A DNA stretch of 64,000 nt, taken from NCBI GenBank assembly GCA_965226585.1, contig OZ245366.1, positions 487,423 to 551,422 of the forward strand. The letters run 5' to 3'. The first letter of the stretch is position 1, and each line of letters opens with the position of its first letter. The notes beneath the pieces are model-generated. The model worked only from the letters and a program-made list of their open reading frames with translations. It searched no databases and was not told the DNA's origin. Shown piece after piece: positions 10,191 to 38,179 of this stretch. Source of the DNA: Thermodesulfobacteriota bacterium (GTDB lineage: Bacteria; Desulfobacterota_D; UBA1144; Nemesobacterales; Mycalebacteriaceae). The position numbers were made by a program, and so were the translations under genes.

Positions 10191-10295
10191 CGGCTTGTCT
10201 GAAACCGCAAAGAAAATACCCGTCCGCGCCGCGCCGTTCCATTATTTTTATGCAATATGTGTCCGGACGGTTTATATTGAAGGCGGGATTTTGCC

Positions 10296-10679: not shown

Positions 10680-10736
10680 CCGTTTTACGGTCTGCTCCCG
10701 TTCTGTTAGAATTGGCGCGAAATACGGACTGCCGCA

Positions 10737-11504
10737 ATGGAAAACTACTACGAAAAACTGGCGGGAAGATACAGAACCCTCCGCATGACGGACAACGAGC
10801 CGGTGGACTTTGCCTGCAAACTGCTTTCGTCATTAAAAGAAGGGCGCGTTGAGGTTGCCGACATGGGCTGCGGCGCAGGAAGATACGCCAAACTGTTTCT
10901 GGAAAATCTCGGAGACAACCTTTTTCTCCACTGCTTTGACACAAACGAAGTTATGCTCAACCAGCTTGAGAAATATCTCTCAGGCGAGGGCATAAAAAAC
11001 TTTTCCGCCAAAGTGGCGGACGCAAGAGAAGTTCCTCTCACCGAAAACACGCTTGATGCGGTGGTGTGCTTCAACTCCGTTCACCACATCGGGATTGTCG
11101 GTTTGCTGCAGGAGATTTCAAGGATATTGAAACCCGGCGGTCTGTTTTTTATCTACACAAGGTCGAGAGCCCAAAACGCGCGAACCGTGTGGGGGCGGTA
11201 TTTTCCGCTTTTCCAGCGCAAAGAGTCGCGCCTTTACGATCCGGAAGAGTTTGAGTTCAAGATTGAAAAATTTCCCGAGTTTGAAATTGAAGCCGCAAAA
11301 ACCTTCACCTACGAGCGCGTAACTTCAAAGAAAGACCTTGAAGAAAAGGCGTCCGCGAAGGCATATTCGCCTTTTCATTTCTACGGGCCCGAAGAGTTTG
11401 ACAGGGCGTTTGACGAGTTCAAAAGGAAACTGGAAGAGCAGTTTGAAGGCGATGTGGAGTGGGAGGACGAGAAGATAATGTACGTCCTCAAAAAACGCGC
11501 CTGA
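10737..11504 (+). CDS. Class I SAM-dependent methyltransferase
   Basis: Motif I VADMGCGAGRYA and a post-I acidic residue are present. The substrate is unknown. Confidence 0.7.
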   Translation: MENYYEKLAGRYRTLRMTDNEPVDFACKLLSSLKEGRVEVADMGCGAGRYAKLFLENLGDNLFLHCFDTNEVMLNQLEKYLSGEGIKNFSAKVADAREVPLTENTLDAVVCFNSVHHIGIVGLLQEISRILKPGGLFFIYTRSRAQNARTVWGRYFPLFQRKESRLYDPEEFEFKIEKFPEFEIEAAKTFTYERVTSKKDLEEKASAKAYSPFHFYGPEEFDRAFDEFKRKLEEQFEGDVEWEDEKIMYVLKKRA

Positions 11505-11519
11505 TATCAAAAAGCGGCT

Positions 11520-12434
11520 TCAACTGAGACAGTCTTTTATCTCGCGTGCGAGGTTTTCCACCACTTCAAAATAGAGGTCTTCACCCGGAGTGATGCCTGA
11601 GCCCAGAGGGTCTATAACTCCGATTTTCGCGTCTGTTCCCTCAACCACCGTTTTCATGATTTTTCTGCTGAACTGCGGCTCGCCGAAAACGCAGACGGCT
11701 CCGGACTTGCGTATTTTTTTGCGTATGCGGGTTATCTCCGCCGCAGACGGAGGGGAATCCGGGTTGAAGGTTATGGAGCCCACCGGTTTCAGCCCGTACA
11801 GTTTTTCAAAATAGATGTAGGCATCGTGAAAAACCACGTACGGAATGCCTTTCACTCCGGCGAGTTCTTTGCGTATTTTCGCGTCCAGTTTTTTCAGCCG
11901 CGCGATAAGAGCCCGCGCGTTTTTTTTGTATCTGCTTCTCTCGCCCGGATTTGCCTTAGACATTTCCCGCGTAATTATCTTCACGATTTTCTCCGCCATT
12001 GGAGGCGACAGCCAGATGTGCAAGTTGTGATTTCCGTGGTCGTGCCCGTCAGACTCCCATTCTCCGCTTTTTCTGACTTTCATAAGCGACAATCCGGAGT
12101 TATCCGCCACCGCCACCGTGCGAACGCCTGAGGGAACGGAGCGCAGGGCGTTGTTGAGAAACCCCTCAAGACCGCCGCTAATATAGAAAACCGCTTTCGC
12201 GTTTCTTATGCTTCTCACGTGCGACGGGCTGAGACTGAATCCGTGAGGCGAAATGCCTGACTTCACTATCAAATCCGTTTTTTCCGCGCCCTTTACAACT
12301 CCCGACACAAGAGCGTGAAGCGGCGCGATGCTTGCCGCTACCCTGCCCGAATCCTTCGCATTTACACCGCCTGAAAACACGGCAAACATCACGCCCGCAA
12401 GAACAAAAACACTTGCAAATCTTTTCATGTGCAA
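11520..12434 (-). CDS. znuA: Zinc ABC transporter substrate-binding protein ZnuA (TroA/cluster A-I SBP)
   Basis: It has a signal peptide and a cluster-9 SBP fold with a His-rich loop (DGHDHGNHNLHIW). It is divergent from zur-znuCB. Confidence 0.85.
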   Translation of the reverse strand: MHMKRFASVFVLAGVMFAVFSGGVNAKDSGRVAASIAPLHALVSGVVKGAEKTDLIVKSGISPHGFSLSPSHVRSIRNAKAVFYISGGLEGFLNNALRSVPSGVRTVAVADNSGLSLMKVRKSGEWESDGHDHGNHNLHIWLSPPMAEKIVKIITREMSKANPGERSRYKKNARALIARLKKLDAKIRKELAGVKGIPYVVFHDAYIYFEKLYGLKPVGSITFNPDSPPSAAEITRIRKKIRKSGAVCVFGEPQFSRKIMKTVVEGTDAKIGVIDPLGSGITPGEDLYFEVVENLAREIKDCLS

Positions 12435-22662: not shown

Positions 22663-23064
22663 GTGAGTGATATTGAAACAAGGGAGGATGTGGAACTGCT
22701 TGTAGACCGTTTCTACGACAAAATGCTCGCGGATTCAATTCTCGGTTTTATTTTCACGGATATTGCGAAGGTTGATATTGATAAACACAAGCCGGTTATT
22801 TGTGATTTTTGGGAAACGCTTTTGTTTAACAAGGCGGTCTACAAACGGGGACCCGAAGTGATGAATGTGCACAAGAGGCTTAATGAAAAGATTCCTCTAA
22901 AAAAAGGGCATTTCAAAAGGTGGCTTTTTCTGTTCTCAAGAACCGTTGACGAATTGTTTGAAGGCAAACGCGCAAGTTTTGCCAAAGAGAAAGCGGATTC
23001 AATTGCGGTGCTGATGCAAAAGAGAGTTGGGGTTGAGGGAGGGGTGGAAGGGAAAAGCATATAG
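22663..23064 (+). CDS. Globin-like protein (truncated haemoglobin family)
   Basis: It is about 130 aa with a truncated-Hb-like pattern (FYDKMLADSILGFIF...FWETLLF). It has a GTG start. Confidence 0.45.
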   Translation: MSDIETREDVELLVDRFYDKMLADSILGFIFTDIAKVDIDKHKPVICDFWETLLFNKAVYKRGPEVMNVHKRLNEKIPLKKGHFKRWLFLFSRTVDELFEGKRASFAKEKADSIAVLMQKRVGVEGGVEGKSI

Positions 23065-23089
23065 TGGTATTCTACGGGAGGTAGTATTG

Positions 23090-23896
23090 ATGGAATTACA
23101 AAAGAAGAAGTCAATTGAAGCTATAGTTCGTTCTGCTGTGGAGTCGTACGCCGTAGGCTTTCAAGCACGCCATGAAGGAGAGGTTGATAATCCTTCTGGC
23201 GTCATCAATATGAAGGTTCATAATGTTTTTATTGAGGCACTTGGGAAAGATATTCAATACTACGCTGCACTTGTACGTTCTTTGGATAGTTCACTCGGAA
23301 ACATGCTTGAAAACATGGCAATCAACATAGCAAAGATGTCATTTGAGGTGAGAACCAATGTTGAAGGTCCGCTTGACCCATCTCAAACACGGAAGATTGC
23401 AAATATTCTGGAGAAGTACAAAAGTCGCAAGAAGGTACCGGCAATATCTGACTATAAGGGTTTGAGAAAACCCCCGAAGGGTGACAAGGCAAGTAAAAAA
23501 CGCCATGAAAGCGATTACTACTTGATTGATGACAAAAATGACAGTCACTATTTGATTGAACTGAAAATTGGCGGTGATCTGGATAACAAGAAAGCCCGTT
23601 CCGAGAAAGAGGCGATTTTAGAACAGTTTGCCATATTGTCTAATACTCTCCCACAAGATAAAGAAATTAAGATTTTCTTTGCAACAGGCTATAACCGCTT
23701 TGGTGAGAATCAGCCTTGGAAACAGGAGCGTGTTCGTCAGTTTTTTGCTGATGAAGAACTACTTGTCGGCAAAGATTTCTGGAATTTTGTATGTTGTTCA
23801 GATGACGGCTATCCTACCGTCATTAATACTTACAGAGAGAGTGCCCACTTGATTAACAAAGCACTCGAGTCGATAAAGAGGACTTATCTTGGCTAA
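23090..23896 (+). CDS. Putative type II restriction endonuclease (PD-(D/E)xK fold)
   Basis: It lies immediately upstream of, and overlaps, a DNA methyltransferase gene. A candidate catalytic motif is ...YYLIDDKNDSHYLIELK (D...ELK). It is AT-rich and its start has a GGGAGG RBS. Confidence 0.5.
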   Translation: MELQKKKSIEAIVRSAVESYAVGFQARHEGEVDNPSGVINMKVHNVFIEALGKDIQYYAALVRSLDSSLGNMLENMAINIAKMSFEVRTNVEGPLDPSQTRKIANILEKYKSRKKVPAISDYKGLRKPPKGDKASKKRHESDYYLIDDKNDSHYLIELKIGGDLDNKKARSEKEAILEQFAILSNTLPQDKEIKIFFATGYNRFGENQPWKQERVRQFFADEELLVGKDFWNFVCCSDDGYPTVINTYRESAHLINKALESIKRTYLG

Positions 23897-24659
23897 AAAA
23901 GTAGAAAAGAGTTATCAATTGCGTCTGGGGGATAGCCATGAATTGATAAAGCAAGTACCCACTTCTTCTGTTGATTTAATCCTTACAGATCCTCCCTATA
24001 ATCTAAGTCCTTATTCTACCGGCAACATTAAGATGTCTTGGCGAAAAGATTTGAACAACGATCTTGCGGACTGGGATAAGGTTGAATTCAAGCCGTCCGA
24101 ATGGGTCAAGGAGTTTAAGAGAATACTAAAACCAGAAGGAAACATTTTTGCCTTCTGTAGTTACAATCTTATTGGCAAATGGCACGAGGTTTTCGACCCT
24201 GAATTTGATACATTCCAATTTATGGTATGGCATAAAACAAACCCAGCACCCAAGATTCGTCGGGCGGGTTTCTTGAACAGTTGTGAAATGATAATTTGTA
24301 TGTGGAACAAAAACCACACTTGGAATTTTACAAATCAAAGAGATATGCACAACTTTATTGAAACACCGATTTGCATGGGTGTTGAAAGGATGAAAAAACC
24401 GAAACACCCTACACAGAAGCCAGTAAGGGTTTTAGAACATTGTATCAACCTTGCTTCGGTGGAGGGTGATGTTGTTTTTGACCCGTTTATGGGAGTTGGT
24501 TCAACAGGAATTGCCGCCCTCAATTTGGATAGGAAGTTTATTGGATTTGAAATAGAAAAAGAATATTTTAAGGCAGCAGAGAAAAGATTGGATGGTAAAC
24601 CTGCCAAACTAGTTTTTGATTGCGATAAGCAAACTTCACGTAAGGTAGGTGTATCATAG
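23889..24659 (+). CDS. DNA methyltransferase, beta-class (N6-adenine or N4-cytosine)
   Basis: The catalytic DPPYN motif comes first, then HPTQKP, then a C-terminal SAM motif FDPFMGVGSTGIAA. This order is typical of beta-class amino-MTases. It has a TTG start overlapping the REase end. Confidence 0.85.
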   Translation: MAKKVEKSYQLRLGDSHELIKQVPTSSVDLILTDPPYNLSPYSTGNIKMSWRKDLNNDLADWDKVEFKPSEWVKEFKRILKPEGNIFAFCSYNLIGKWHEVFDPEFDTFQFMVWHKTNPAPKIRRAGFLNSCEMIICMWNKNHTWNFTNQRDMHNFIETPICMGVERMKKPKHPTQKPVRVLEHCINLASVEGDVVFDPFMGVGSTGIAALNLDRKFIGFEIEKEYFKAAEKRLDGKPAKLVFDCDKQTSRKVGVS

Positions 24660-25278
24660 GGTGATTATAGACTTTCCTGAGGCACAAACATATATTGCCA
24701 AGATAATTTCACAATATGTCAATAGACAAATTCGTGAACGCTCTAAATTGCTTTCAATGATGAATCCGGTACATGTCGTACATGAGGGTGACAGAATTGG
24801 AATTCACCGTGAAGATGGGAGCCGTGAGTCTAAACCACTTACGCTTCATAAGAGTGAGGTCCAAATAACAGGTGATAATGGGGTTGCAATTGGAGCAGAA
24901 GAACTGGTAAAAGGTCTTGATGATATGGTCGGGGATATGTCTCGTCAACTTGAAAAAAGTGTTGTGAGTGGAATACAAGATATCGCCGAGAAAGGCGAGA
25001 ATACAGTCTCAGGCAGTATGGACAATATTGAAAGTATGCAAGATATGCTTCTTCAATCAATGGAGAATATGCATATTGATTTCAAAGATGGTGATCGCAA
25101 TAAGCCAATACTCCCAAGTTTGCTTGTTCACCCCACTATGGGTTCAAAACTCGCCGAACTTGCATCAGGAGAGACGCAGATACAAAAAGATAACTTTAAG
25201 GAACGCGAAAAAAAGATATTGGATGAAAAATATAAGGATTACATAAATGATATCAATTCTCGTATTATCGTAGATTGA
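24649..25278 (+). CDS. Hypothetical protein X (no recognisable domain), third gene of the R-M operon
   Basis: Its start overlaps the MTase stop, and it is followed 1 nt later by the next gene. It is AT-rich. The start codon is uncertain (GTG at 24649/24661, or ATG at 24757). Confidence 0.45.
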   Translation: MYHRVIIDFPEAQTYIAKIISQYVNRQIRERSKLLSMMNPVHVVHEGDRIGIHREDGSRESKPLTLHKSEVQITGDNGVAIGAEELVKGLDDMVGDMSRQLEKSVVSGIQDIAEKGENTVSGSMDNIESMQDMLLQSMENMHIDFKDGDRNKPILPSLLVHPTMGSKLAELASGETQIQKDNFKEREKKILDEKYKDYINDINSRIIVD

Positions 25279-25279
25279 T

Positions 25280-26896
25280 ATGTGCAGTAGTAACAATCAA
25301 AATAGAGACCCTTTTTTACAGAGAGCTATTGAATACTGGCTAGATTCTGCAAACGAACTTGGCTATCAGCCACTTTTCTGTGAGTCATTGATAAACAAAG
25401 GGTATAGTCTCAAATATTCAATTAAAAATACGAGTTTTGAACAGGGAAAGGATGTTGTTGCAGTTGATTCTGAAGGAATACCCCATGCTTATCAATTAAA
25501 GGGTGGAAAGATAACTTTGGATAGGTGGAGAAGAGAAGTTAGACCTGAGATAGAGGCATTAATTGATTGTCCAATAGAGCATCCTGAAATTAAAAAAGAA
25601 GACATGCATGAGTCTCACCTCGTTACTAATGGTGAGTTAGATGATAGTGTTAGGGTTGAAATAAATAGCCTCAATTCCAAGAAATGGAAGGAAACTCCTC
25701 TGCGTTTAGAAACAAGAGGGGATTTGCTAAGTGCTTTTCAGAAAATGGCAGAAGGGATGTTTCCTATTGATGCGCAAATGTACAGACAAATTGTTGATTT
25801 AATGTTTGTGGATGGAGAGGGTTCTCCTAATCTGGATCGAGTAAACAATTTTCTTGTTGGGATTCTACAAATAAACAAAGACGGTAAAGTTCCAAAAGAG
25901 CAGAGGAAAAGAGATATAGCGGCAGCACTTCTTTACTCAACAATTTTTGTAGGGCATTACAGAAAAATGGAAAACCATATTTCCGTTGTCCGGATAATGG
26001 TTTTGTTGCTTTCTCTAATCTTTCATTTAGTCGACAAGCATAATCTTGAAGACAAGTATTGGATTGATTCCTACAAAATCATCTGGAATGACATTGTTGA
26101 AACATTAAAATTATTAGAAGGTGAAATTAAAGATGGTTCTCTTCATAGAATTCCTGAAGACCCTCTGAAGAGTGGACTCAAGCAATTTAGAGAGCATGGA
26201 GCAGTTTCCCTCCTGCTTTCCCTTCAATTGGCAGAATGTATCTCAAACAAAGAAAAACGTAACGATATAGTTGATTACTTAACTCAAGTAGATATAAACA
26301 AACATATTTTACTCTGGGGAGAATCTTCTTTAGTCCCCTACATTTTTATGTCGTTGATATTAAAGGTTCAAGAACCAAAATTCGCGTCTGATATTTTGAA
26401 AAATGCAGCATTAGAGATAATCAGACATAATGGAAGAACATCTAATGAAAAACTAGGTCTGCTTTCTCCTTATTATGATATAGATTATGCAGTAAAAATA
26501 AAATTCGATTTGTTGGAGAAAGAATTCGAGGATCATACACCTCTGCATTCTTATTTTTTAAATCCTCTCGTTCACCTGCTTGCAAGATTTCAAGAAAGAG
26601 CTTTTCTTTCTAGTGTTTGGAAGGAGATTTCCTTCATATATTTTGAAGAGTTTGTATTTGATAATAACATAGACTATTACCTTTGGAGATCCCAAAGAGG
26701 GGAAAATCTTACCACCGCTCCACAGAAACAGCAAAGTTGGTCGGATCTAGAGAATAAATCTTCTCAAACCAGTAGTGATATGCCTCCGAAAACGATGCAA
26801 AGATTTCCAGAATTTTTACCACTTTTCCTCTCAGTATTTCCTTTCAGATTAAATTCTCAAACACTATGTTTTTTGGACAGTCAAATTAATGGCTAA
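25280..26896 (+). CDS. Hypothetical protein Y with an N-terminal Mrr/NERD-like PD-(D/E)xK nuclease signature and a large C-terminal helical domain
   Basis: The N-terminal segment GKDVVAVDSEGIPHAYQLKGGK fits the D-x(n)-E/Q-x-K pattern of Mrr_cat/NERD restriction-endonuclease-like domains. The remaining roughly 420 aa have no recognisable motif. Confidence 0.5.
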   Translation: MCSSNNQNRDPFLQRAIEYWLDSANELGYQPLFCESLINKGYSLKYSIKNTSFEQGKDVVAVDSEGIPHAYQLKGGKITLDRWRREVRPEIEALIDCPIEHPEIKKEDMHESHLVTNGELDDSVRVEINSLNSKKWKETPLRLETRGDLLSAFQKMAEGMFPIDAQMYRQIVDLMFVDGEGSPNLDRVNNFLVGILQINKDGKVPKEQRKRDIAAALLYSTIFVGHYRKMENHISVVRIMVLLLSLIFHLVDKHNLEDKYWIDSYKIIWNDIVETLKLLEGEIKDGSLHRIPEDPLKSGLKQFREHGAVSLLLSLQLAECISNKEKRNDIVDYLTQVDINKHILLWGESSLVPYIFMSLILKVQEPKFASDILKNAALEIIRHNGRTSNEKLGLLSPYYDIDYAVKIKFDLLEKEFEDHTPLHSYFLNPLVHLLARFQERAFLSSVWKEISFIYFEEFVFDNNIDYYLWRSQRGENLTTAPQKQQSWSDLENKSSQTSSDMPPKTMQRFPEFLPLFLSVFPFRLNSQTLCFLDSQING

Positions 26897-26945
26897 TTCA
26901 GGAGGTTGCCAAATTTGTCTTTTTCCCGGCATTGTTTTAGGTATT

Positions 26946-28037
26946 TCACCCCATCTCATACCCCGTACTCCTTCCGCCTTCTTTGCTTTTCTTTAATATC
27001 TTCAACTCAATCAGCGCGTTAATATCCCTTTGCGCGGTGTCTTGGGAGCATTTTCCCATCTTTGCCCACTTTGACGAAGTGAGTTTGCCCTTGAAGTTTC
27101 CGTCCAGAAGCAAGTTCAAAATCTTTGTCTGCCTGCTGTTGAAAGGCACCTCAGCGTATTCCTCCCAAAAACGCGCCTTATGCAGGATTGCCGACAGCAT
27201 TTTGTCGGAACCCGCTATGGAACGTTTGAGACAACCCAGAAACCAACTCAGCCATTTTGTAATATCAACTCCGCTGTTTTGCGTTTCCTCAAGCTGTCTG
27301 TAGTAGTCCTGCCTCTCTTCCATTATCTGCGTGGACATACTGTAAAAACGTTGCGATGTTTCCTCGGAACGGGCAAGAGCCATCTCCGCTATCGCCCTTG
27401 TTGTGCGCCCGTTCCCGTCATCAAACGGGTGGATAATTACAAACCACAGGTGAGCAACCGCCGCTTTAATCACCGGATCCATTGAAGACGGCGAGTTAAA
27501 CCACGAAAGAAAATCATCCATCTCCTTCGGAACCCGCTCTGCGGGCGGAGCAACAAAATGAACCCTCATCCTTCCCTCGCGCCCCGATACAACCTGAACT
27601 CCGTGAGTACGCCACTTTCCGGTTGTTATCTTGTGAAAACCACTGCGCCCGTCCGGGAAAAGAGAAGCGTGCCAGCCGAAAAGCCGCTTTTTTGTGAGCG
27701 TTTTGTCAAAATTTGTTGTGGCGTCAATCAGTATCTCCACTATGCCGTCCACCTCACGCCCGTACGGTTTGCCCTCATACGTATCTATTCCCAAACGCCG
27801 CGCAACGGATGAACGAACCTCCTCAACATCAAGAAACTCCCCCTCAATTTCACTGGTTTTGATAATCTCTCCCGACAGAGTCCGGAAAGCGGCGTCACGC
27901 CTCAGATTAAAACCGAGACCGCTCATGCGTCCCAGCAAAAGCCCCTGCGTGCGGTGAACCTCCGCCAAAAGAGCAGACAACTCGCCGTCATCCCACTTCA
28001 AAAGGGGCCAACCCTTTTCTTCCCATAAATACGGCAT
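26946..28037 (-). CDS. Fic family protein (DUF4172-type N-terminus, C-terminal winged-helix domain)
   Basis: It carries the Fic motif HPFDDGNGR and an inhibitory-type motif TSEIEGE, with a C-terminal wHTH (KILNLL...SSKWAKMGKCSQDTAQRDINAL). I placed the start at MPYLWEE (ATG at 28037, RBS AGAGG). The 14-codon extension in the ORF track overlaps the operator-like repeats. Confidence 0.85.
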   Translation of the reverse strand: MPYLWEEKGWPLLKWDDGELSALLAEVHRTQGLLLGRMSGLGFNLRRDAAFRTLSGEIIKTSEIEGEFLDVEEVRSSVARRLGIDTYEGKPYGREVDGIVEILIDATTNFDKTLTKKRLFGWHASLFPDGRSGFHKITTGKWRTHGVQVVSGREGRMRVHFVAPPAERVPKEMDDFLSWFNSPSSMDPVIKAAVAHLWFVIIHPFDDGNGRTTRAIAEMALARSEETSQRFYSMSTQIMEERQDYYRQLEETQNSGVDITKWLSWFLGCLKRSIAGSDKMLSAILHKARFWEEYAEVPFNSRQTKILNLLLDGNFKGKLTSSKWAKMGKCSQDTAQRDINALIELKILKKSKEGGRSTGYEMG

Positions 28038-28046
28038 ATTGTGAAC

Positions 28047-28212
28047 CTCTGCGGAGATTAATGTTGCTATTCTCCGCATATTTTGCGGAGAATATAGCCC
28101 GCATTCACCGCAAAATCAACCTTAATCTCCGCACATTCTGCGGAGATTAGCAATTTCTATGACTCATAATTTGGGGGTTTTATGAGTCATAGAACAGTTT
28201 CCTATGACTCAT
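28047..28212. promoter_or_regulatory. Cluster of three perfect palindromes plus half-sites in the Fic 5' region
   Basis: The first palindrome is ATTCTCCGCA-tattt-TGCGGAGAAT (28069-28093). The second is TAATCTCCGCA-cattc-TGCGGAGATTA (28123-28149), with a half-site TGCGGAGATTA (28050-28060) overlapping the Fic RBS. The third is CTATGACTCATAA-N10-TTATGAGTCATAG (28157-28192), with a third CTATGACTCAT copy at 28202-28212. Confidence 0.55.
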
Positions 28213-30288: not shown

Positions 30289-32691
30289 TTAGAACAGATA
30301 CTTCAGGCGCAAGCCAATCCTTCTCGGCTCCGTAACGGTTCTGGCGTATATGCGGATGGAAAAGCCGTCTCTGAGGCTGAATAATGGGTCGTTCAGAAGT
30401 GGCACGCCGTTCACGGCGCTGGTTGCCGAGTATTTGTTGAACAGGTTTTCCGCGAATGCGGAGAGCTTCATCCGTCCGACTGAAACCGAAGCCGAAAGGT
30501 TGTGAACCCCGTAGCCGCCGAATTTGTCGCGGTAGTTCCCGTGCCCTCTGAAGAATTTGGATGTGCGCGAGTATCCGTAGAGAAAGTCCACGGGCGCGCC
30601 CGCCAGAGCGGTTTTGTAGAGCGCGAGCAAACTTGCCGTGTGCTCCGGCGCGTACGGGATTACCTCGTTATGCCCGTCTTCGGTATTCAGATAGCTCCAC
30701 GAGCCGCGAATCTCCGCCTCTTCAAACGGCTTCAACACAAGCGAGAATTCCAGACCGGCGGTTTCGGCTTCCCCCTCATTAACGGTGATTGCCTCGCCGC
30801 TTCCGGTGGATGCGGCAATCGTCTGAATGTCTTTCCATTGCGCGCTGAAAACCGCCGCGTCCGCTTCCACCGCGCCGCCAAGCCATGAGCCGCGAAACCC
30901 GATTTCGTAATTTGCCACGCTGTCCGGCATGAAGCTCACCTCATTCGGCTGAAGGCAACTTGCCTGCACGGTTTCGCCTTCCCCGGCGCCGAGATGCTGA
31001 CTGCAGACCGGAAGCCGGTTGCGCCCGCCCAGCCGGTAGCCGCCCGCCCGCGTGAAATACGCGAAAAAGTTTTCCCGCATTTTCATCTCCATTTTCACGC
31101 TGTAGACCGCGCCGCTGTCTTCACTGCCGAATTTTGAGTAGGGCGAGTCGTGCTCTCCGGTCCCGCCGTTTTCTCCGGGCGTGAACGGAAAGCGGGTGAA
31201 CCCTTCAACCGTTCCCTCATACGAATACCACCGCCCGCCCGCGCTGATTTTCAGCCACCGGTCGAAAAGCGAGCGCGAAACCTCGCCGAACACGGCTTTT
31301 TCCGTATTCCGGTTGCGCTCTTCCGTTTCATATTCAAGCGTTTTGTCTGCGGCGTCAAAATCCGCAAGATTGAAAAAATCCACAAGTCCGGGCGTGAACT
31401 CCTTTTGCGCGTCCGTATCGTCATTCTCCTCATAGAAAAGCCCCGCCGCAAATCTCCACTTGCCAATGTCATCTGACTCGGCGCGTATTTCAAAGCGCGT
31501 GTTTTCAATCTCAAAGTTGTCAACCGTAAGGGCGGAAAACTCCCGGAAACAGAAAGCGGCGGCGGTGGCGGGGTTACCGCACACACTCAAATCCGGCTGT
31601 CCGTTTTCGAGATAGGGCGAATAGTCGGCGTCATTTTCGTCTGCGTAGGGCGCAACCGTGCCGTGGGGCAGTAAGCCGCCGATGCCGAGCCACAGGAGCA
31701 GAAAATCCGTCTGGTCGCGCCAGCCCTCATACGAAAACTTTGAGTGTCCCGCCACGCCGGTGAACAGAACGGGACCTTTTTTCCATTTGAGGTTCGCGCT
31801 CCATATTTCGTTTTCAGAGTCGCCGGGTTCAAGGTAGCGGAATGCGGATTCATATTTTCCGGTGTTAAAATCGGAGATTGTGTGGTTTGCCCGCCGCGCG
31901 CCGGATTCCTGTTTTTGTCTGTCGTATGACACGGCTGCCTCAATGTCTTCTGTCAACCGCCAGAGCAGTGAAAGGCGCGAGTACAGGGCTTTCTCATCAT
32001 CCGCGTCTTTTTTCCTGCGCAGGTTGTCCGCCCGTGCGCTTTCGCCAAAATCCCTTGGGTCTGGCAGGGAAACTCCCGGTTCCCGCAGAAGGTAGTTGTA
32101 GTCAATAAATCCCGGCTCTCCGCTCCGCCGCACCGCGCCGCGAAAGGCAAGGCGGTTTTTCAAAACGGGCAGGTTGACGATTGCGTCCGCTTCGTAGCCG
32201 TATCCGCCGCTCTTACTGCGAACATCTCCGCCCGCGCGGACGGACAGAGAAAATTTATCGGTATCCGGCTTGCGGGGAATGTAATGCACCACGCCGCTCA
32301 TAATGCCGGAGCCGTGCGCGACTCCCTGAGGTCCCTTAACGATTTCAACGCGTTCAAGGTCAAGCAGTTTCGGGTCTATGCCGATAACCGGAAGTTCGCC
32401 GAGAAAGGCGGCGGAATGCGAGAAGCCGCGTATCAGCCGCAGGTTTTCTTCCCGTCCGCCCGTGTCAAAAACTGAAAACCCCGCAACCCACGGCGACAAG
32501 TCCGAGATGTTGTCCGCGCCGAGCCGGTCAATTAAATCGCCGTCAATCAGAGTTACGGCGAAAGGTGTTTCAAAGAAGTTTTCCGTGTGCCATGTTTCCC
32601 TTGAGTAACCCGGCTCTGCGGTAAGGAGCAGGGCAAGGGAGACAAACAAGAAGTGGGTAAAAATGAGAGTTCTCGTCATGATGTGCTTCAC
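30289..32691 (-). CDS. TonB-dependent outer-membrane receptor
   Basis: It has a signal peptide, an N-terminal plug, a long beta-barrel of about 800 aa and a C-terminal aromatic (LRLKYLF). The substrate is unknown. Confidence 0.85.
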   Translation of the reverse strand: MKHIMTRTLIFTHFLFVSLALLLTAEPGYSRETWHTENFFETPFAVTLIDGDLIDRLGADNISDLSPWVAGFSVFDTGGREENLRLIRGFSHSAAFLGELPVIGIDPKLLDLERVEIVKGPQGVAHGSGIMSGVVHYIPRKPDTDKFSLSVRAGGDVRSKSGGYGYEADAIVNLPVLKNRLAFRGAVRRSGEPGFIDYNYLLREPGVSLPDPRDFGESARADNLRRKKDADDEKALYSRLSLLWRLTEDIEAAVSYDRQKQESGARRANHTISDFNTGKYESAFRYLEPGDSENEIWSANLKWKKGPVLFTGVAGHSKFSYEGWRDQTDFLLLWLGIGGLLPHGTVAPYADENDADYSPYLENGQPDLSVCGNPATAAAFCFREFSALTVDNFEIENTRFEIRAESDDIGKWRFAAGLFYEENDDTDAQKEFTPGLVDFFNLADFDAADKTLEYETEERNRNTEKAVFGEVSRSLFDRWLKISAGGRWYSYEGTVEGFTRFPFTPGENGGTGEHDSPYSKFGSEDSGAVYSVKMEMKMRENFFAYFTRAGGYRLGGRNRLPVCSQHLGAGEGETVQASCLQPNEVSFMPDSVANYEIGFRGSWLGGAVEADAAVFSAQWKDIQTIAASTGSGEAITVNEGEAETAGLEFSLVLKPFEEAEIRGSWSYLNTEDGHNEVIPYAPEHTASLLALYKTALAGAPVDFLYGYSRTSKFFRGHGNYRDKFGGYGVHNLSASVSVGRMKLSAFAENLFNKYSATSAVNGVPLLNDPLFSLRDGFSIRIYARTVTEPRRIGLRLKYLF

Positions 32692-32728
32692 CGGGGCAAT
32701 TTATACGACTTCTTCCCCGCCGTAAATC

Positions 32729-32757
32729 TTGACACAAAACGGCTTTTGAAACACAAT
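32729..32757 (+). promoter_or_regulatory. Sigma70-like promoter for tRNA-Val
   Basis: TTGACA (32729-32734), a 17-nt spacer and CACAAT (32752-32757). The tRNA 5' end is at 32772. Confidence 0.4.
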
Positions 32758-32771
32758 AGGCGGGCTTAAAA

Positions 32772-32843
32772 GAGCGCGTAGCTCAGCGGGAGAGCGCTTG
32801 CCCGACACGCAAGAGGTCGCTGGTTCGATCCCAGCCGCGCTCA
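32772..32843 (+). tRNA. tRNA-Val (anticodon GAC inferred); no CCA encoded
   Basis: It folds as GAGCGCG-TA-GCTC-AGCGGGA-GAGC-G-CTTGC-CCGACAC-GCAAG-AGGTC-GCTGG-TTCGATC-CCAGC-CGCGCTC-A. The loop CCGACAC gives GAC at positions 34-36, but position 33 is C instead of the near-universal U. Confidence 0.75.
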
Positions 32844-33280
32844 TGGAGGGAAATCTATTGCTAAAGGATTACCAAGAAAGGACAGATTTTGGGTACATAT
32901 TTCCCGCCAAGAGAAAGGACGGAAGTATGATTATGCTTGTCAGATTTGGAAGACATGATGGGAAGGGGTATGACTTTGAGCTACATTGTATATCTGCCGA
33001 ACACCACAAGGAATGGTTAAAATTAGGACACGCACCATCAGACATTAAGACTGTTAGGCAACACGTCAGTGTTAGTCCACATTGGGAGGACAGCAGTAAG
33101 TGGGTAGTAACTGATGTATCTGCGGATTACGACCAAAAAATTGTAGACTCAAGGGAAGATGCTTTTGCTGAGGCAATTCGTGCAATGACGGAAGATGATG
33201 ACCCTATAAGGGAAAAGATTCCCGATGTTAATCACAGTATTAAATGGTGGATGGATGAAACCGCAAAGTTTGATTGGTGA
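32843..33280 (+). CDS. Hypothetical protein P1 (island cargo)
   Basis: This AT-rich ORF begins at the last nt of the tRNA (MEGNLLLKDYQ...). An alternative start is MIMLVRF at 32927. No recognisable domain was found. Confidence 0.4.
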   Translation: MEGNLLLKDYQERTDFGYIFPAKRKDGSMIMLVRFGRHDGKGYDFELHCISAEHHKEWLKLGHAPSDIKTVRQHVSVSPHWEDSSKWVVTDVSADYDQKIVDSREDAFAEAIRAMTEDDDPIREKIPDVNHSIKWWMDETAKFDW

Positions 33281-33282
33281 AA

Positions 33283-33948
33283 ATGAACTCAGATCTTATA
33301 GAAGTCATCACAACTTACGCTACCAAGTCTCACGGAGACCTGAATGCCTTGTTATCTGGAAAGTCAAAAGACAACATCACTTCTATTCTTGTTGACCTTC
33401 TCACCACTTACTACAATGACAAAAACTCATCAACTTTAAGAGAGTTTGTTCTGGTGTCCCTGAGTGGTTTTGAACAGAACCTCGGTAAAATCGGCTATAA
33501 CGGTTACAAGCATGAGAGTATTGGTAGCAAGACAAAATATTGCGAAGCGAAACCCAAGAATGTCAACACAAACGATCCGAAGCCAAAGAAGCTGAATGGC
33601 GGGGGAAACTTTACGGACTACACTTGGGCGAGACTGGAAAAAGATAAGTCGTCTAACCCAACAATGCTTGTTGGGGGCTTTATAGACGGACGCCTGATTT
33701 ACATATTCAAGTTTCCTTTCAATTCAAAGGATTTTGTTGATAGGCTGGAGCACCAGTTAAAAAACAAGTTTCCTGACGGAGACGTAAGTGGATACTTTCT
33801 CAGAAGTGCTTCTTTTGGCTTAAAACACTACAAAAGTATTGCTAATTTGGATGTTGAAGTTTTTGTAAAAGAGCAAGATTTACCTAAATATGAAAACAGC
33901 ATTACAAAAGGGTTATACTCTTTCATAGAGGAGTCCTTTACCGAATAA
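33283..33948 (+). CDS. Hypothetical protein P2, possible restriction endonuclease partner of the downstream methyltransferase
   Basis: Its start is 2 nt after the P1 stop, and its stop overlaps the MTase ATG (TAATG). It is AT-rich. A possible PD-(D/E)xK-like segment GYKHESIGSKTKYCEAK is present. There is no secure domain call. Confidence 0.4.
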   Translation: MNSDLIEVITTYATKSHGDLNALLSGKSKDNITSILVDLLTTYYNDKNSSTLREFVLVSLSGFEQNLGKIGYNGYKHESIGSKTKYCEAKPKNVNTNDPKPKKLNGGGNFTDYTWARLEKDKSSNPTMLVGGFIDGRLIYIFKFPFNSKDFVDRLEHQLKNKFPDGDVSGYFLRSASFGLKHYKSIANLDVEVFVKEQDLPKYENSITKGLYSFIEESFTE

Positions 33949-34829
33949 TGGAACTCAAGCCTGAACAGTACAGAAACAAACTTATATGTGGTGATACTTT
34001 CGAGGCTTTGCGGTCAATCCCAAACGGTGTTGTAGATGTTGGTGTAACCTCTCCTCCATATAACAAGAAAGAAAAAAACAAGGGCTGGTTGGTAAAGAAT
34101 GTTGTCTACTCTGAATACAAGGACAAAGTTCCTGAAAACAAGTATCAGGCAAATCAAGTTGCTGTTTTGAACGAAATCCACCGTATAACCAAAAGCGATG
34201 GGTCTTTTTTCTATAATCACAAAATCAGGTGGGAAGATGGAGAGATGTTTCACCCTATGGATTGGTTGAGAAAGACCGATTGGGTTGTTAAGCAAGAAAT
34301 CATCTGGGATAGGACTATCGCCGCGAATATAAGAGGGTGGAGATATTGGCAAGTTGAGGAGAGGATTTACTGGCTTTACAAGCCGATTGGTACAAACAAG
34401 AAAGGGAGAGAGCTGGCATCAAAGGATGCAAAGTTAACCTCAGTGTGGCGAGCAGTTCCTGAAAACAACAATCCTCATCCCGCTCCTTTTCCCCTTTGGC
34501 TTCCGGCAAGGATCATCATTTCACTTTTAGAAGGTAAAAAAAGCGGTCTTGTTTTAGACCCGTATGTTGGTAGTGGCACAACTGCGGTTGCCGCAAAATT
34601 GCTCGGCTTTGATTATCTGGGTGTGGATATTGGAGAGGAGTACATTGACTACGCTGAAGAACGTCTTGCAAATGCTGAAAGAGAAAGAAGCAAGATTATG
34701 GGTGAGCAGAGCCTTCATAAAGTCCACAAGACCTTTAAGTCCAGAAAAGAAAGGGGAGAAAATACTGGCAAATATCGTAAAGAGGAAGAATCTAACAAGC
34801 CTCTAACACTCTTTGAGCATAGGAAATAG
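33948..34829 (+). CDS. DNA methyltransferase, beta-class (SPPY motif; N4-cytosine or N6-adenine)
   Basis: VGVTSPPYN comes first, then a C-terminal SAM motif LDPYVGSGTTAVAA. Its size and layout match beta-class amino-MTases. Confidence 0.85.
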   Translation: MELKPEQYRNKLICGDTFEALRSIPNGVVDVGVTSPPYNKKEKNKGWLVKNVVYSEYKDKVPENKYQANQVAVLNEIHRITKSDGSFFYNHKIRWEDGEMFHPMDWLRKTDWVVKQEIIWDRTIAANIRGWRYWQVEERIYWLYKPIGTNKKGRELASKDAKLTSVWRAVPENNNPHPAPFPLWLPARIIISLLEGKKSGLVLDPYVGSGTTAVAAKLLGFDYLGVDIGEEYIDYAEERLANAERERSKIMGEQSLHKVHKTFKSRKERGENTGKYRKEEESNKPLTLFEHRK

Positions 34830-34880
34830 TGCGCTAAGTAAGGGTAATTTGCTAGGGTGGTTTTTATTTTGAGTTTGAAT

Positions 34881-35285
34881 ATGGAAGACAAAGTCCAGAA
34901 AGATTATGATTACAGGCAGGGACTTATTTCCACAGAAACCAGTCTCAGACATTCTTATGACAAATTAGTAGTTGCCATTGCAACGGGTACGGTTTGGATA
35001 AGTGTTTTCTTTGTTGATGGTAGGGAGATGATAGTCTCAGAAAGGTTTATCTTCTGGGGCTGGTTTTTTTCAATTCTTTCCATAGTTTCCGTGTTGTTCT
35101 CAGTCTATTTAGGTATCAAAGCACACAGAAAAGCAGTTGAGCAAAGGGATAAAAACCCTAGCCAGACACACAGGCTAGGTGGAAATTTTTCGCTTTTGTC
35201 GAGCTATTTTCACAACTCTGCCTTAGCCTTTTTGATTGTCGGTATGTGTTTTATATGTGCATTTGTCTTTTTTAATATAAGGTAG
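34881..35285 (+). CDS. Small membrane protein (3 predicted TM), unknown function
   Basis: Hydrophobic segments VVAIATGTVWISVFFV, FIFWGWFFSILSIVSVLFSVYL and LAFLIVGMCFICAFVFF. It is AT-rich. I placed the start at MEDKVQ. Confidence 0.4.
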   Translation: MEDKVQKDYDYRQGLISTETSLRHSYDKLVVAIATGTVWISVFFVDGREMIVSERFIFWGWFFSILSIVSVLFSVYLGIKAHRKAVEQRDKNPSQTHRLGGNFSLLSSYFHNSALAFLIVGMCFICAFVFFNIR

Positions 35286-35300
35286 TACAATTCGGGTGGC

Positions 35301-35465
35301 ATGAAGGACGATAAACAAAATCCTCCAACTCCTACAGAGCCAGAGGAGCGTCCCACTCCTAAGCCTGTTGGGGACAACAGAAGGGATCAGTCTTGGGAAC
35401 CACCGCCACCACCCCCGTCGCCACCATCACCCCCGCCAAAAGAAAATCCTAATCAAGATGATTAG
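35301..35465 (+). CDS. Possible proline-rich 54-aa ORF (speculative)
   Basis: It encodes MKDDKQNPPTPTEPEERPTPKPVGDNRRDQSWEPPPPPPSPPSPPPKENPNQDD. It is below the ORF-track cutoff and sits between the membrane-protein gene and the tRNA. Confidence 0.15.
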   Translation: MKDDKQNPPTPTEPEERPTPKPVGDNRRDQSWEPPPPPPSPPSPPPKENPNQDD

Positions 35466-35520
35466 ATGGACAGTTGGTTTTTTGACAACGCTTGTTATTT
35501 CAAAGCATATACGAACTTCA

Positions 35521-35592
35521 GGCCCCGTAGCTCAGGGGGAGAGCGTTCGCCTCACACGCGAAAGGTCGTTGGTTCAATTCCAACCGGGGCCA
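35521..35592 (+). tRNA. tRNA-Val (anticodon CAC); no CCA encoded
   Basis: It folds as GGCCCCG-TA-GCTC-AGGGGGA-GAGC-G-TTCGC-CTCACAC-GCGAA-AGGTC-GTTGG-TTCAATT-CCAAC-CGGGGCC-A. It is preceded by TTGACA (35482-35487). Confidence 0.85.
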
Positions 35593-35627
35593 AGCTAGGC
35601 TAGGATAAGAAATATAGGGGATTGATT

Positions 35628-36173
35628 ATGTTTTCTATTGTTTTTGCATCAATTGCTCTCTTGATTTCTGTTTTCACCCTTTACTTACAGTTTTTTCATC
35701 ATCCGCGCAGGATCAGAGTTGTCAGCCTCGGGATACACACCCCTCACGGACAAAGGTTTGCTATATGTAATGGAGGCAAGCAAGCAGCTTATCTGGTCAG
35801 CATATCGGCAAATTATATGTTTCCGCTGAATCAAGGAACTCTTTTTTCGCCGGTTGAGAAAATACAAACGGTAAGTACCAGTTTTATCCAACCTGATGGT
35901 TTCCTCGAATTTTTCTATCAAGATACACAAGAAAATTTTCGGAAAGCTACGGACACATACTCATCTCTTGCGAGGTCGGGTAAGGTTCAAAACAAAAGAG
36001 TGAGCATCATGATTGATGTTTCCATTTCATTTTCTGATGGCGTAATATTCTATCATCAGTTTGAATCTGCTGTGGTCTCATTCAACGACCAGCATGCTCT
36101 TCAAGCAATGTCTTACAATGAGGTTGGTCTTGATTTTTTAAAGAGTGCAAAAGAAAAAGGCTTTTCTAAGTGA
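35628..36173 (+). CDS. Hypothetical protein with an N-terminal TM helix (AT-rich, island-like)
   Basis: MFSIVFASIALLISVFTLYLQFF, followed by a soluble domain with no motif. AGGGG sits 6 nt upstream of the ATG. Confidence 0.4.
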   Translation: MFSIVFASIALLISVFTLYLQFFHHPRRIRVVSLGIHTPHGQRFAICNGGKQAAYLVSISANYMFPLNQGTLFSPVEKIQTVSTSFIQPDGFLEFFYQDTQENFRKATDTYSSLARSGKVQNKRVSIMIDVSISFSDGVIFYHQFESAVVSFNDQHALQAMSYNEVGLDFLKSAKEKGFSK

Positions 36174-36247
36174 AATCCGTTGAATAGTTTGGTAAAAACG
36201 GCAAGGTATGTCTCAAGTTTCTTCTGAAAACCATCGTATCTCTCACT

Positions 36248-38179
36248 ATGTCTAGTATAACAATCACAAACAAAGACAACTCCGCCGAAATTGAATTCGG
36301 TTCAACAGTCGCGCAAGCCCTTGCCGCTCTCGGCGCGGAGAAATCCGCTATCGGGGCTACTGTCAACGGCAACCTGATGGACTTGACGCAAACCCTTGCG
36401 GAAAACTCCGCGCTTGAACCCGTTAAACAAAACTCCCCCGAAGGGCTTGCCCTTATACGCCACACCGCCGCGCACGTTATGGCGGAAGCGGTTCAAGGGC
36501 TCTTCCCGGATGTGAAAGTTACCATCGGTCCCGTTATTGATAACGGTTTCTATTACGATTTTGACGCTCCAACACCGTTCACACCGGAAGACCTGGAGAA
36601 GATTGAAGAAAAAATGACGGAAATAGTCTCGGAAAACAAACCGCTTGCGCGCAAGACCGTCTCACGCGAAGACGCGGTTAAAACCTTTTCGGATATGGGC
36701 GAAAACTATAAAGTGGAAATCATCCGCGACCTGCCCGAAGACGAAGACATCACGATTTACGAACAAGGCAAATGGTTCGACCTGTGCAGAGGGCCCCACG
36801 CGCCTTCAACCGGCGCGGTCAAAGCGTTCAAACTCACGTCCTCCGCCGGAGCTTACTGGCGCGGCGTTGAAACCAACCCCATGCTTCAGCGCATATACGG
36901 CACGGCTTTCCCCGACAGAAAAGAACTGAAAAAACACCTCGCCATGCTTGAAGAAGCAAAAAAACGCGACCATAGAAAACTGGGCAAAGAACTCGACCTT
37001 TTCAGCATCCGAGACGATGTGGGTCCGGGGCTTGTTCTCTGGCATCCGAAAGGGGCGAGAGTGCGCGGAATTATTGAAGACTACTGGAGAAAAGAGCACC
37101 GCAAGGCGGGATACGACATTCTCTACACACCGCACCTTGCGCGTCTCGACCTTTGGAAAACAAGCGGACATCTGGACTTCTACTCTGAAAGCATGTTCTC
37201 GCCGTCACAAATTGACAACGCAGACTATCAGATAAAACCGATGAACTGCCCGTTTCATATCCTTATCTACAAATCCACCGTCAGAAGCTACAGAGACCTG
37301 CCGCTTCGCTGGGCGGAAGTGGGAACGGTCTACAGATACGAACGCTCAGGCGTTCTGCACGGGCTTTTGAGAGTGAGAGGCTTTTCACAGGATGATGCCC
37401 ATATATTCTGCCGCCCCGACCAGATTGCGGATGAAGTGGGAGACGTTATAGACCTTACGCTCTCATTCCTGAAAAAGTTCGGGTTTGACGATTTTGAGAT
37501 ATTTCTCTCCACACGCCCCGACAAGTTTGTGGGAAGCGAAGAAGACTGGGAAAGATCAACCGAAGCCATCAAATCCGTGATGGAGGACAAGGGGCTGGAG
37601 TATTCCATTGACGAAAAAGGCGGCGCGTTTTACGGGCCCAAGATAGACCTCAAGATAAAGGACGTTCTCGGAAGGTCTTGGCAGTGTTCCACCGTTCAGT
37701 TAGACTTCAACCTGCCCAAGAGGTTTGACATGGCGTTTGCGGGTGAAGATAATGCGCGCCATGTTCCGATAATGATTCATCGCGCCATATTCGGTTCGTT
37801 TGAGAGATTTTTCGGGATTTTAGTTGAGCATTACGGCGGAGCGTTTCCGTTGTGGCTCAGCCCGGTTCAAGTCCGGGTTGCCACTGTCGGGGGCGAATAC
37901 GCCGGATACGCGCAATCGGTTGTGGATGCTCTCAGGGGGAAGGGAATACGGGTTGAAGAAGACTTCAGAAACGAAAAACTCGGCTACAAGGTTAGAGAGG
38001 CTCAAGTGATGAAGGTGCCGTACCTGCTCGTGATTGGAGAAAAGGAAGCCGCGAATTCAACCGTGGCGCCAAGAAAATATGGAAGTGAAAGTTTGAACCC
38101 AATGGGGATTGGCGAGTTTATAGAAGTGCTGAACACTGAAGGCGCGGAGTTTGAATCCGGCGGGGAGATGTCGCCATAA
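36248..38179 (+). CDS. thrS: Threonine--tRNA ligase
   Basis: It has a TGS/second-site N-terminus, class II motifs and a C-terminal anticodon-binding domain, at 643 aa. Confidence 0.95.
   Translation: MSSITITNKDNSAEIEFGSTVAQALAALGAEKSAIGATVNGNLMDLTQTLAENSALEPVKQNSPEGLALIRHTAAHVMAEAVQGLFPDVKVTIGPVIDNGFYYDFDAPTPFTPEDLEKIEEKMTEIVSENKPLARKTVSREDAVKTFSDMGENYKVEIIRDLPEDEDITIYEQGKWFDLCRGPHAPSTGAVKAFKLTSSAGAYWRGVETNPMLQRIYGTAFPDRKELKKHLAMLEEAKKRDHRKLGKELDLFSIRDDVGPGLVLWHPKGARVRGIIEDYWRKEHRKAGYDILYTPHLARLDLWKTSGHLDFYSESMFSPSQIDNADYQIKPMNCPFHILIYKSTVRSYRDLPLRWAEVGTVYRYERSGVLHGLLRVRGFSQDDAHIFCRPDQIADEVGDVIDLTLSFLKKFGFDDFEIFLSTRPDKFVGSEEDWERSTEAIKSVMEDKGLEYSIDEKGGAFYGPKIDLKIKDVLGRSWQCSTVQLDFNLPKRFDMAFAGEDNARHVPIMIHRAIFGSFERFFGILVEHYGGAFPLWLSPVQVRVATVGGEYAGYAQSVVDALRGKGIRVEEDFRNEKLGYKVREAQVMKVPYLLVIGEKEAANSTVAPRKYGSESLNPMGIGEFIEVLNTEGAEFESGGEMSP

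Follow-up and report, generated by a model that had tools for sequence, protein, structure and literature searches.

Gene content of the tRNA-Val–thrS region

The 64,000-nt stretch of DNA analyzed here, hereafter called the window, is part of contig OZ245366.1 (positions 487,423 to 551,422; assembly GCA_965226585.1) from a Thermodesulfobacteriota bacterium of the family Mycalebacteriaceae. We focused on a segment in which a predicted type II restriction-modification (R-M) operon lies between two tRNA-Val genes, upstream of thrS (Table 1). The two tRNA genes, tRNA-Val(GAC) at 32772-32843 and tRNA-Val(CAC) at 35521-35592, were both called on the plus strand by ARAGORN. The R-M operon consists of the genes for P2 and for a methyltransferase (MTase), referred to as R and M respectively. 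In the arrangement proposed below, the space between the tRNA genes would form slot 1, holding the R-M operon together with P1 and the genes of a transmembrane (TM) protein and of a proline-rich (Pro-rich) open reading frame (ORF), and the space from tRNA-Val(CAC) to thrS would form slot 2, holding a 183-aa membrane-anchored protein (p183). The gene order after p183 is thrS-infC-rpmI-rplT, with thrS starting at 36248.

GC content ranges from 0.33 to 0.47 across 32900-36250, with ~0.53-0.60 in the flanks, and is 0.414 in the island itself (32847-36247) versus 0.532 in its flanks. An AT-rich tract around the two tRNA-Val genes up to thrS, noticed in an earlier reading of the sequence alone, is therefore borne out by the GC scan and the ARAGORN calls. 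The same sequence-only reading gave each tRNA gene its own TTGACA promoter, which holds for tRNA-Val(GAC); upstream of tRNA-Val(CAC) the TTGACA hexamer is present, but the -10 element is weak (3/6) and the site was missed by our promoter scan. It also placed the P1 start on the last base of tRNA-Val(GAC), and this ATG overlap was confirmed, the public annotation (P0121, 145 aa) using the same start. In agreement with that reading, family-library searches detected no integrase or transposase domain in the island ORFs and repeat searches detected no repeat resembling an attachment (att) site. The search for att repeats and terminal repeats around the island returned nothing above chance, and no flanking inverted repeats; the sole tRNA-related direct repeat consists of the two tRNA-Val genes themselves, which are 82% identical over 61 nt.

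Table 1. Features of the tRNA-Val–thrS region and of a second low-GC island, in window coordinates.
Feature	Coordinates	Strand	Remarks
Promoter of tRNA-Val(GAC), sigma-70-like TTGACA-17-CACAAT	32729..32757	+	10/12 match
tRNA-Val(GAC), left conserved anchor of the proposed hotspot	32772..32843	+	no CCA encoded
P1, 145 aa	32843..33280	+	ORF scan
P2, predicted type II restriction endonuclease, 221 aa	33283..33948	+	predicted PvuII-like PD-(D/E)xK fold
Two overlapping promoter-like hexamer pairs within the R 3' end, shortly before M	33890..33949	+	
MTase, beta-class amino-MTase	33948..34829	+	PF01555, motif IV TSPPY
TM protein, 142 aa	34857..35285	+	ORF scan; membrane protein
Pro-rich acidic ORF, 54 aa, isoelectric point (pI) 4.6	35301..35465	+	positional counterpart in L001
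TTGACA promoter region and tRNA-Val(CAC), foreign allele	35481..35592	+	
p183, 183 aa, N-terminal TM helix, slot-2 cargo	35622..36173	+	
thrS 5' end, putative right-hand recombination boundary	36248..36310	+	first ~20 codons within swapped tract
TdeIII-family restriction endonuclease	23027-23896		PF09520, E 4e-40
N6_N4 MTase	23889-24659		
ORF beside N6_N4 MTase, 209 aa	24649-25278		
ORF after the 209-aa ORF, 538 aa	25280-26896		
SoFic (DUF4172+Fic)	26946-28079	-	PADLOC SoFic, E 2e-51

Allelic variation and turnover of the locus

The locus was compared in ten related genomes or assemblies; the relatives referred to below are labeled L001, L005-L007 and L165-L171. As judged by thrS homologs, the nearest relatives are sponge-symbiont Dadabacteria near Ca. 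Mycalebacterium. Two of the assemblies, L165 and L166, are conspecific with the window (99% identity in thrS, and 98-99% across ~5.9 kb and 5.7 kb of flanking DNA), and both have 49 nt between the tRNA-Val genes, i.e. a slot 1 without cargo. Their slot 2 is occupied by a DUF4268 protein matching PADLOC PDC-S11 (E 3e-91) in L165 and by a T5orf172+DUF5655 protein matching PDC-S57 plus PDC-S18 in L166, where the PDC families are candidate, not proven, defense systems. The window, L165 and L166 thus present three different alleles within 98-99% identical flanks. L167 is empty (tRNA, 186 nt, tRNA, 9 nt, thrS), and L170 is similar, being empty or nearly so. In L168 (Ca. M. zealandia) and L171 the tRNA genes are 48 nt apart and slot 2 is occupied, by a homolog of p183 (34% identity) in L168 and by a T5orf172 gene in L171. 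The same R-M as in the window is found between the tRNA genes of L001 and L169 (R 79-81%, M 83% identity). It is accompanied by the TM and Pro-rich genes in L001; in L169 a second R-M, of the TaqI family, stands in place of the TM gene, which goes with the R-M in the window lineage and L001 only. The P2 ortholog of L169 (159-826) is split by a 1-nt deletion, with residues 1-37 and 37-221 in different frames, next to an intact MTase, which may reflect real decay of R leaving a solitary methylase or an error in the Logan assembly. Between its tRNA genes, L005 has the decayed remnant of another MTase (30% identity, E 3e-7). Adjoining this remnant, a tandem repeat fills part of the inter-tRNA slot of L005 (7860-8231), and its minus strand translates as ~19-aa repeats ('RPLRKTLQDLALNKMSVDY...'). 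In the distant relatives L006 and L007, tRNA-Val(GAC) stands directly before thrS and there is no tRNA-Val(CAC).

Overall, the cargo is mostly of defense or defense-candidate type: the R-M in three lineages, the TaqI-family R-M, the MTase remnant, PDC-S11, PDC-S57/S18 and T5orf172. The empty and alternative alleles agree with the proposal that the segment is accessory, strain-variable DNA, and the empty site predicted to exist in relatives was found, in full in L167 and for slot 1 in L165 and L166. The sequence-only reading had held that shared content and composition among relatives would speak against an island; such sharing is seen in L001 and L169 and is contradicted by L165, L166, L167, L168, L170 and L171. 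With this mixed outcome the island survives as an old polymorphic hotspot, not as a recent insertion.

Comparison with the conspecific alleles places the breakpoints. Homology to the empty slot-1 allele ends at 32846, 3 nt past tRNA-Val(GAC), and blastn homology resumes at 36257; identity of thrS to the conspecifics is 89-91% in 36248-36347 and 95-100% beyond. The strain-specific tract consequently begins 3 nt downstream of tRNA-Val(GAC), takes in tRNA-Val(CAC) and ends within the first ~20 codons of thrS. This tRNA gene differs from its L165/L166 counterpart at 5 positions, with compensatory changes in the acceptor and T stems, and matches the L168 and L171 copies exactly; its promoter resembles that of L005. 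On the left side, the tRNA-Val(GAC) sequence is identical among the window, L165, L166 and L001, and promoter and tRNA together show 97.5% identity to L001 over 120 nt. Similarly to the tRNA allele, p183-like and T5orf172-like slot-2 genes are each present both in the window species and in the Mycalebacterium pair. The 49-nt spacer of L165 and L166 is homologous to the 48-nt spacer of L168 and L171 and so is not the scar of a recent deletion. A housekeeping tree built from five proteins has a star-like shape and places the R-M carriers on three separate deep branches. In none of the 11 alleles examined did we find an integrase, a transposase, an att site or a target duplication.

These patterns suggest that the region is a two-slot defense hotspot bounded by the core genes tRNA-Val(GAC), tRNA-Val(CAC) and thrS, with cargo turnover by homologous recombination, a reading to which we assign a probability of roughly 70%. 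Slot contents would be gained, lost and exchanged between strains and lineages through recombination in the conserved flanks, leaving no att site behind. We infer allele replacement of this kind from the breakpoints, the foreign tRNA allele, the shared slot-2 families and the lack of mobility genes, and allele sharing across deep lineages would then imply homologous recombination among the symbionts. The sequence-only reading had offered two alternatives, loss of a mobility module or capture of the cargo by a mechanism other than site-specific mobility; the second is the better one, no mobility module being present. Its suggestion that the tRNA genes served as att targets of an integrase does not fit the breaks, which lie in the inter-tRNA spacer and in the 5' end of thrS, with the second tRNA gene inside the swapped tract. 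We regard the tRNA genes as conserved recombination anchors, not att sites. The idea that they represent a long target duplication from R-M insertion was also considered and rejected, as both are present 48-49 nt apart in the empty alleles.

Several points weigh against the hotspot reading. Homologous recombination is deduced from patterns, not observed, in hosts that are uncultured symbionts. L165, L166 and L169 are metagenome or Logan assemblies, in which strain mixtures or assembly errors are possible. Finally, the R-M genes of the carriers have diverged as far as housekeeping genes have, and recombinational exchange is difficult to tell apart from simple vertical descent accompanied by repeated deletions. 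Among the window, L001 and L169, synonymous divergence (dS) of R and M is saturated (1.3 to above 2) and at least as deep as that of thrS, which indicates that the cassette is an old tenant of the site, not a recent arrival. The ratio of nonsynonymous to synonymous divergence (dN/dS) between carrier lineages is 0.05-0.10 for R and M, like that of thrS, reflecting strong purifying selection.

Such depth is what an ancestral resident operon would show, i.e. an R-M fixed in the ancestor of the Dadabacteria clade and passed on by vertical descent, with independent deletions in most lineages and no horizontal exchange. The same R-M at the same site on three deep branches fits this account, as do the identities of R (79-81%) and M (83%) set beside 79-84% for thrS, with dS saturated for both under strong purifying selection. 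We nevertheless consider it unlikely, since conspecifics with 98-99% flank identity are without the R-M and at least five independent precise losses would be needed. A 49-nt spacer with homology to that of the distant L168 and L171 is not what a recent deletion would leave, the tRNA-Val(CAC) allele and the slot-2 families are incongruent with the housekeeping tree, and the gene family is scattered over unrelated phyla.

A decayed tRNA-targeting island, in which an integrase-bearing element entered tRNA-Val and later lost both integrase and att site, has a slimmer chance still. The cargo does adjoin tRNA genes, the classic targets of integrases, units of R-M plus integrase in tRNA genes are documented (PMC2853133), and GC is low. 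However, neither an att repeat nor a partial copy of a tRNA gene is present, the insertion falls within the inter-tRNA spacer and not in the 3' half of a tRNA gene, the right boundary is inside thrS, and an integrase is found in 0/11 related loci spanning seven cargo states. Low GC discriminates poorly, because, among 32 unrelated hosts with flanks of 4 kb or more, the R-M pair is poorer in GC than its surroundings in 31, whatever the context (mean difference of 7 points). AT-richness thus characterizes the gene family and does not serve to date its arrival. Given this and the saturated dS, we rejected low GC as a mark of recent arrival, the same R-M occupying the same site in lineages at saturated dS. 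The hotspot reading with recombinational turnover is the one retained in what follows.

The tRNA genes of these lineages also differ in whether the 3'-CCA is genomically encoded. It is encoded in both tRNA-Val genes of L167, in tRNA-Val(GAC) of L005 and in tRNA-Val(CAC) of L169 and L170, and is lacking from the window, L165, L166 and L001, as well as from the tRNA-Val(CAC) genes of L168 and L171. In the lineages without CCA, the stretch right after the discriminator base has therefore been remodeled.

The P2 family, its partner methyltransferase and the accessory genes

P2 belongs to a family of ~796 proteins of ~220 aa, all annotated as hypothetical, across Dadabacteria, candidate phyla radiation (CPR) groups and Poribacteria. 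It has no match in Pfam, NCBIfam, PADLOC or PDB sequences, nor among PLSDB plasmids or IMG/VR contigs, and its sole library match is an unannotated PHROG (phrog_3210, E 7e-18). The structure model of P2 has a predicted local distance difference test (pLDDT) score of 86.9. By two methods its clearly best fold match is PvuII, with DpnI and Hjc also among the matches. The motif C-E88-x-K90 is invariant and lies on a core beta-strand of the model; an equivalence of E88/K90 with E68/K70 of PvuII is only a lead.

As a linkage sample we used 80 metagenomic loci encoding a relative of P2. A co-oriented orthologous MTase directly adjoins the P2 relative in all of them (78 downstream, 2 upstream), and these linked MTases are 55-68% identical to that of the window. 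The same arrangement, a P2 homolog with an adjacent co-oriented MTase, is found in L004. No relatives of P1, the TM protein or p183 were found in the 80 loci. In the window the MTase start overlaps the P2 stop as TAATG, through which P2 would be translationally coupled to the MTase. Because of the strict linkage, the PvuII fold and the invariant E-x-K, we assign P2 and the MTase to a predicted type II R-M system with P2 as the cognate endonuclease; the MTase would protect host sites and P2 would cut unmethylated incoming DNA. The MTase, which had looked like an orphan when the sequence alone was read, is therefore not one, being strictly linked to a predicted PvuII-fold endonuclease.

Against this assignment stand the failure of the PADLOC restriction endonuclease (REase) models to match P2, the upstream catalytic Asp of the PD...(D/E)xK signature, which could not be placed (model residues 70-82 are of low confidence), and a non-significant hhalign comparison of the P2 family with PvuII (probability 0.16, obtained with an approximate PvuII query sequence). 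P2 might then be some other PD-(D/E)xK protein (a DpnI-like methyl-directed nuclease, a resolvase or a regulator) beside a regulatory orphan MTase, as its lack of a sequence-family match, the DpnI and Hjc fold matches and the unlocated Asp would allow, but this is highly improbable in view of the 80/80 linkage to a co-diverging orthologous MTase, the stop/start overlap, PvuII as the clearly best fold match by two methods, the invariant E-x-K on a core strand and the self-toxicity of a methyl-directed nuclease in an operon with an MTase unless their specificities differ.

The MTase matches PF01555 (E 1.4e-31) and PADLOC MTase_II (E 2e-35). It displays TSPPY at residues ~34-38, DPYVGSGTT, and FxGxG near residue 205, in the beta-class order of motifs IV-VIII, then the target recognition domain (TRD), then X-I-III, with motif IV of the S-P-P-Y type. 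TSPPY is kept in the MTases of 80/80 orthologous loci. S-P-P-Y/F, rather than D/N-P-P-Y/F, is the motif rule for N4-methylcytosine (m4C) MTases (PMC8885841). The closest PDB relative is N4CMT of the rotifer Adineta vaga (8S9N, E 2e-43, 40% identity over 248 aa), a demonstrated 4mC-forming enzyme (PMC10406627). Owing to the SPPY motif IV and to this nearest solved relative, the product of the window MTase is predicted to be m4C. Characterized bacterial relatives of N4CMT recognize TCGA or CCSGG (PMC8885841), which is a lead only for the specificity of the MTase. N4CMT (8S9M/8S9N; PMC10406627, PMC8885841) shares with the window MTase the SPPY motif IV and the beta-class motif order, but it is a eukaryotic, intron-containing, chromodomain-bearing enzyme with no partner nuclease, whereas the window MTase is a bacterial R-M methylase. 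The 40% identity to the N4CMT catalytic domain reaches the top of the range that the structural paper gives for bacterial relatives ('under ~40%'; PMC10406627), and the P2-linked MTase family may be the bacterial source or donor clade of the horizontally transferred rotifer N4CMT gene, or close to it.

Short palindromes are depleted in the whole window, with observed/expected ratios of 0.11 for GGCC, 0.18 for GATC, 0.24 for CTAG, 0.29 for TCGA and 0.41 for AGCT; similarly, CCCGGG occurs once against 13.9 expected and GGCGCC 3 times against 27. Reading a recognition site from palindrome avoidance was rejected, as many 4-mers and GC-rich 6-mers are depleted and no single site stands out. Such broad depletion fits a genome long exposed to numerous R-M systems, a situation described for sponge symbionts (PMC8163846).

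Taken together, we propose a function, that of a predicted PvuII-fold REase partnered with N4CMT-like m4C methylases, for a hypothetical family of ~800 members. The identity of the P2 family is useful for R-M and defense annotation (REBASE, PADLOC, DefenseFinder), and a new specificity is possible for this family, to which Pfam, NCBIfam and PADLOC give no annotation.

The other genes of the locus are more restricted. P1 is a lineage-specific insert of ~435 bp between tRNA-Val(GAC) and R, lacking in L001 and L169, where the ATG of R follows 8 nt after the tRNA gene. It is open over its full length, and ORFs of at least 140 codons arose in just 0.46% of shuffles. P1 shows a coding-like pattern with GC content higher at first than at second codon positions (GC1>GC2) and a pI of 5.3, and an alternative start is possible at 32928, after an AAGGA-like ribosome-binding site. 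Neither of two very large searches against proteins nor any family library yielded a relative of P1, and its single-sequence structure model is unreliable. By these sequence features P1 qualifies as a genuine ORFan. The TM protein is 43% identical to the product of L001 4180-4599, with dN/dS of 0.33, and the L001 sequence after this gene encodes a peptide comparable to the Pro-rich 54-aa ORF. Both genes stand outside the R-M module and are kept only between the window and L001. Neither the TM protein nor p183 has a match in family libraries. The p183 gene, with its homolog in the same slot of L168, is allelic to the defense-candidate genes of L165 (PDC-S11) and L166 (PDC-S57/S18).

Expression, known systems and neighboring variable sites

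Upstream of P1 and R, the scan shows no promoter-like site other than the tRNA-Val(GAC) promoter, no plus-strand terminator-like site was found in 32500-36400, and the gap separating R from the tRNA gene in L001 and L169 is too short for a promoter. For these reasons R is probably made from a read-through transcript of tRNA-Val(GAC). The two overlapping promoter-like pairs in the 3' end of R might provide R-independent expression of the MTase; the region holds 8 promoter-like sites against 6.2 +/- 2.2 in shuffles, which is not above expectation. P1 was considered as a controller (C) protein and rejected, as it carries no helix-turn-helix (HTH) motif and neither L001, L169 nor any of the 80 other loci contains it. 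Most economically, P1 would be a young leader ORF that modulates translation of R. A scheme in which tRNA-coupled control of restriction stands in for a C protein, with R, devoid of a promoter of its own and long retained within 8 nt of the tRNA 3' end in this lineage, depending on read-through from the tRNA promoter plus 3' processing of the precursor, and P1 acting as a newly born or captured leader ORF that tunes R translation, is speculative and on balance doubtful.

Among known R-M systems, that of PvuII pairs R.PvuII, a PD-(D/E)xK homodimer, with M.PvuII, a beta-class N4-cytosine MTase. Its genes are divergent and accompanied by C.PvuII. Unlike these, the window genes are co-oriented, R then M, with overlapping stop and start and no C gene. 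P2 (221 aa versus 157 aa) has no detectable sequence similarity to R.PvuII, and the window MTase is distant from M.PvuII (E 2e-4, C-terminal part only).

In many bacteria pheS/pheT/rplT genes follow thrS-infC-rpmI-rplT, which would put the Pseudomonas aeruginosa defense hotspot cDHS1 at the other end of the same translation cluster. This hotspot is flanked by pheS, pheT, rplT and a tRNA gene (PMC10250203). More generally, defense hotspots flanked by core and tRNA genes have been described without an assignable mobile genetic element (MGE), and homologous recombination mediated by the flanks was proposed as a scarless route of transfer (PMC10250203). Like the window locus, cDHS1/cDHS2 (PMC10250203) and the E. 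coli defense-island hotspots (PMC10121019) hold variable low-GC defense cargo between invariant core genes. Also like the window locus, they adjoin a non-coding RNA gene and carry strain-specific systems, some of them without identifiable mobilization genes. In contrast to the core hotspots, with their median of 26 kb, the window slots measure 0-3.3 kb each, are adjacent and parted by an exchanged tRNA gene, lie in a symbiont genome of ~1.5 Mb and show no MGE genes in 11 alleles. Frequent intraspecific indel and substitution polymorphism of R-M loci with conserved flanks was likewise reported (Furuta, Abe & Kobayashi 2010; PMC2853133). The window locus shares with those loci the presence/absence of R-M or its substitution by unrelated genes, the lack of a mobility gene and decayed remnants (L005); it differs from them in having no long target duplication, the tRNA-Val genes being distinct isoacceptors that are also present in empty alleles, and no flanking inverted repeats. 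We see nothing conceptually new in this, the puzzle of the missing integrase being resolved by known biology. The locus represents a miniature of the integrase-free hotspot flanked by core genes, in an uncultured sponge symbiont (Dadabacteria) with a reduced genome of ~1.5 Mb.

Other variable sites are found in the neighborhood. A second low-GC (0.35-0.41) defense island is present at 23027-28079 (Table 1). Its flanks (leuS-DS-adh_short ... thiE-thrC) lie close together in L167, L168 and L171, and in L165 the site harbors a different gene (N6_N4 MTase+RAMA), with homology to the window only from 26949. Between threonine synthase and tRNA-Val(GAC), the window encodes an 800-aa TonB-dependent receptor (30289-32691, minus strand; GC 0.56), which is restricted to the window, L165 and L166; the other relatives all have threonine synthase immediately next to the tRNA gene. 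Because its GC is normal, the receptor looks like a lineage-specific gain of a different kind. Finally, L170 has a phage-capsid-like gene (PF19821; 3201-4241) between adh_short and thiE and an extra block (100-aa ORF, Peptidase_M78, DUF2085; 10256-12123) between rplT and an HhH-GPD gene, both of them further variable spots of the same neighborhood.

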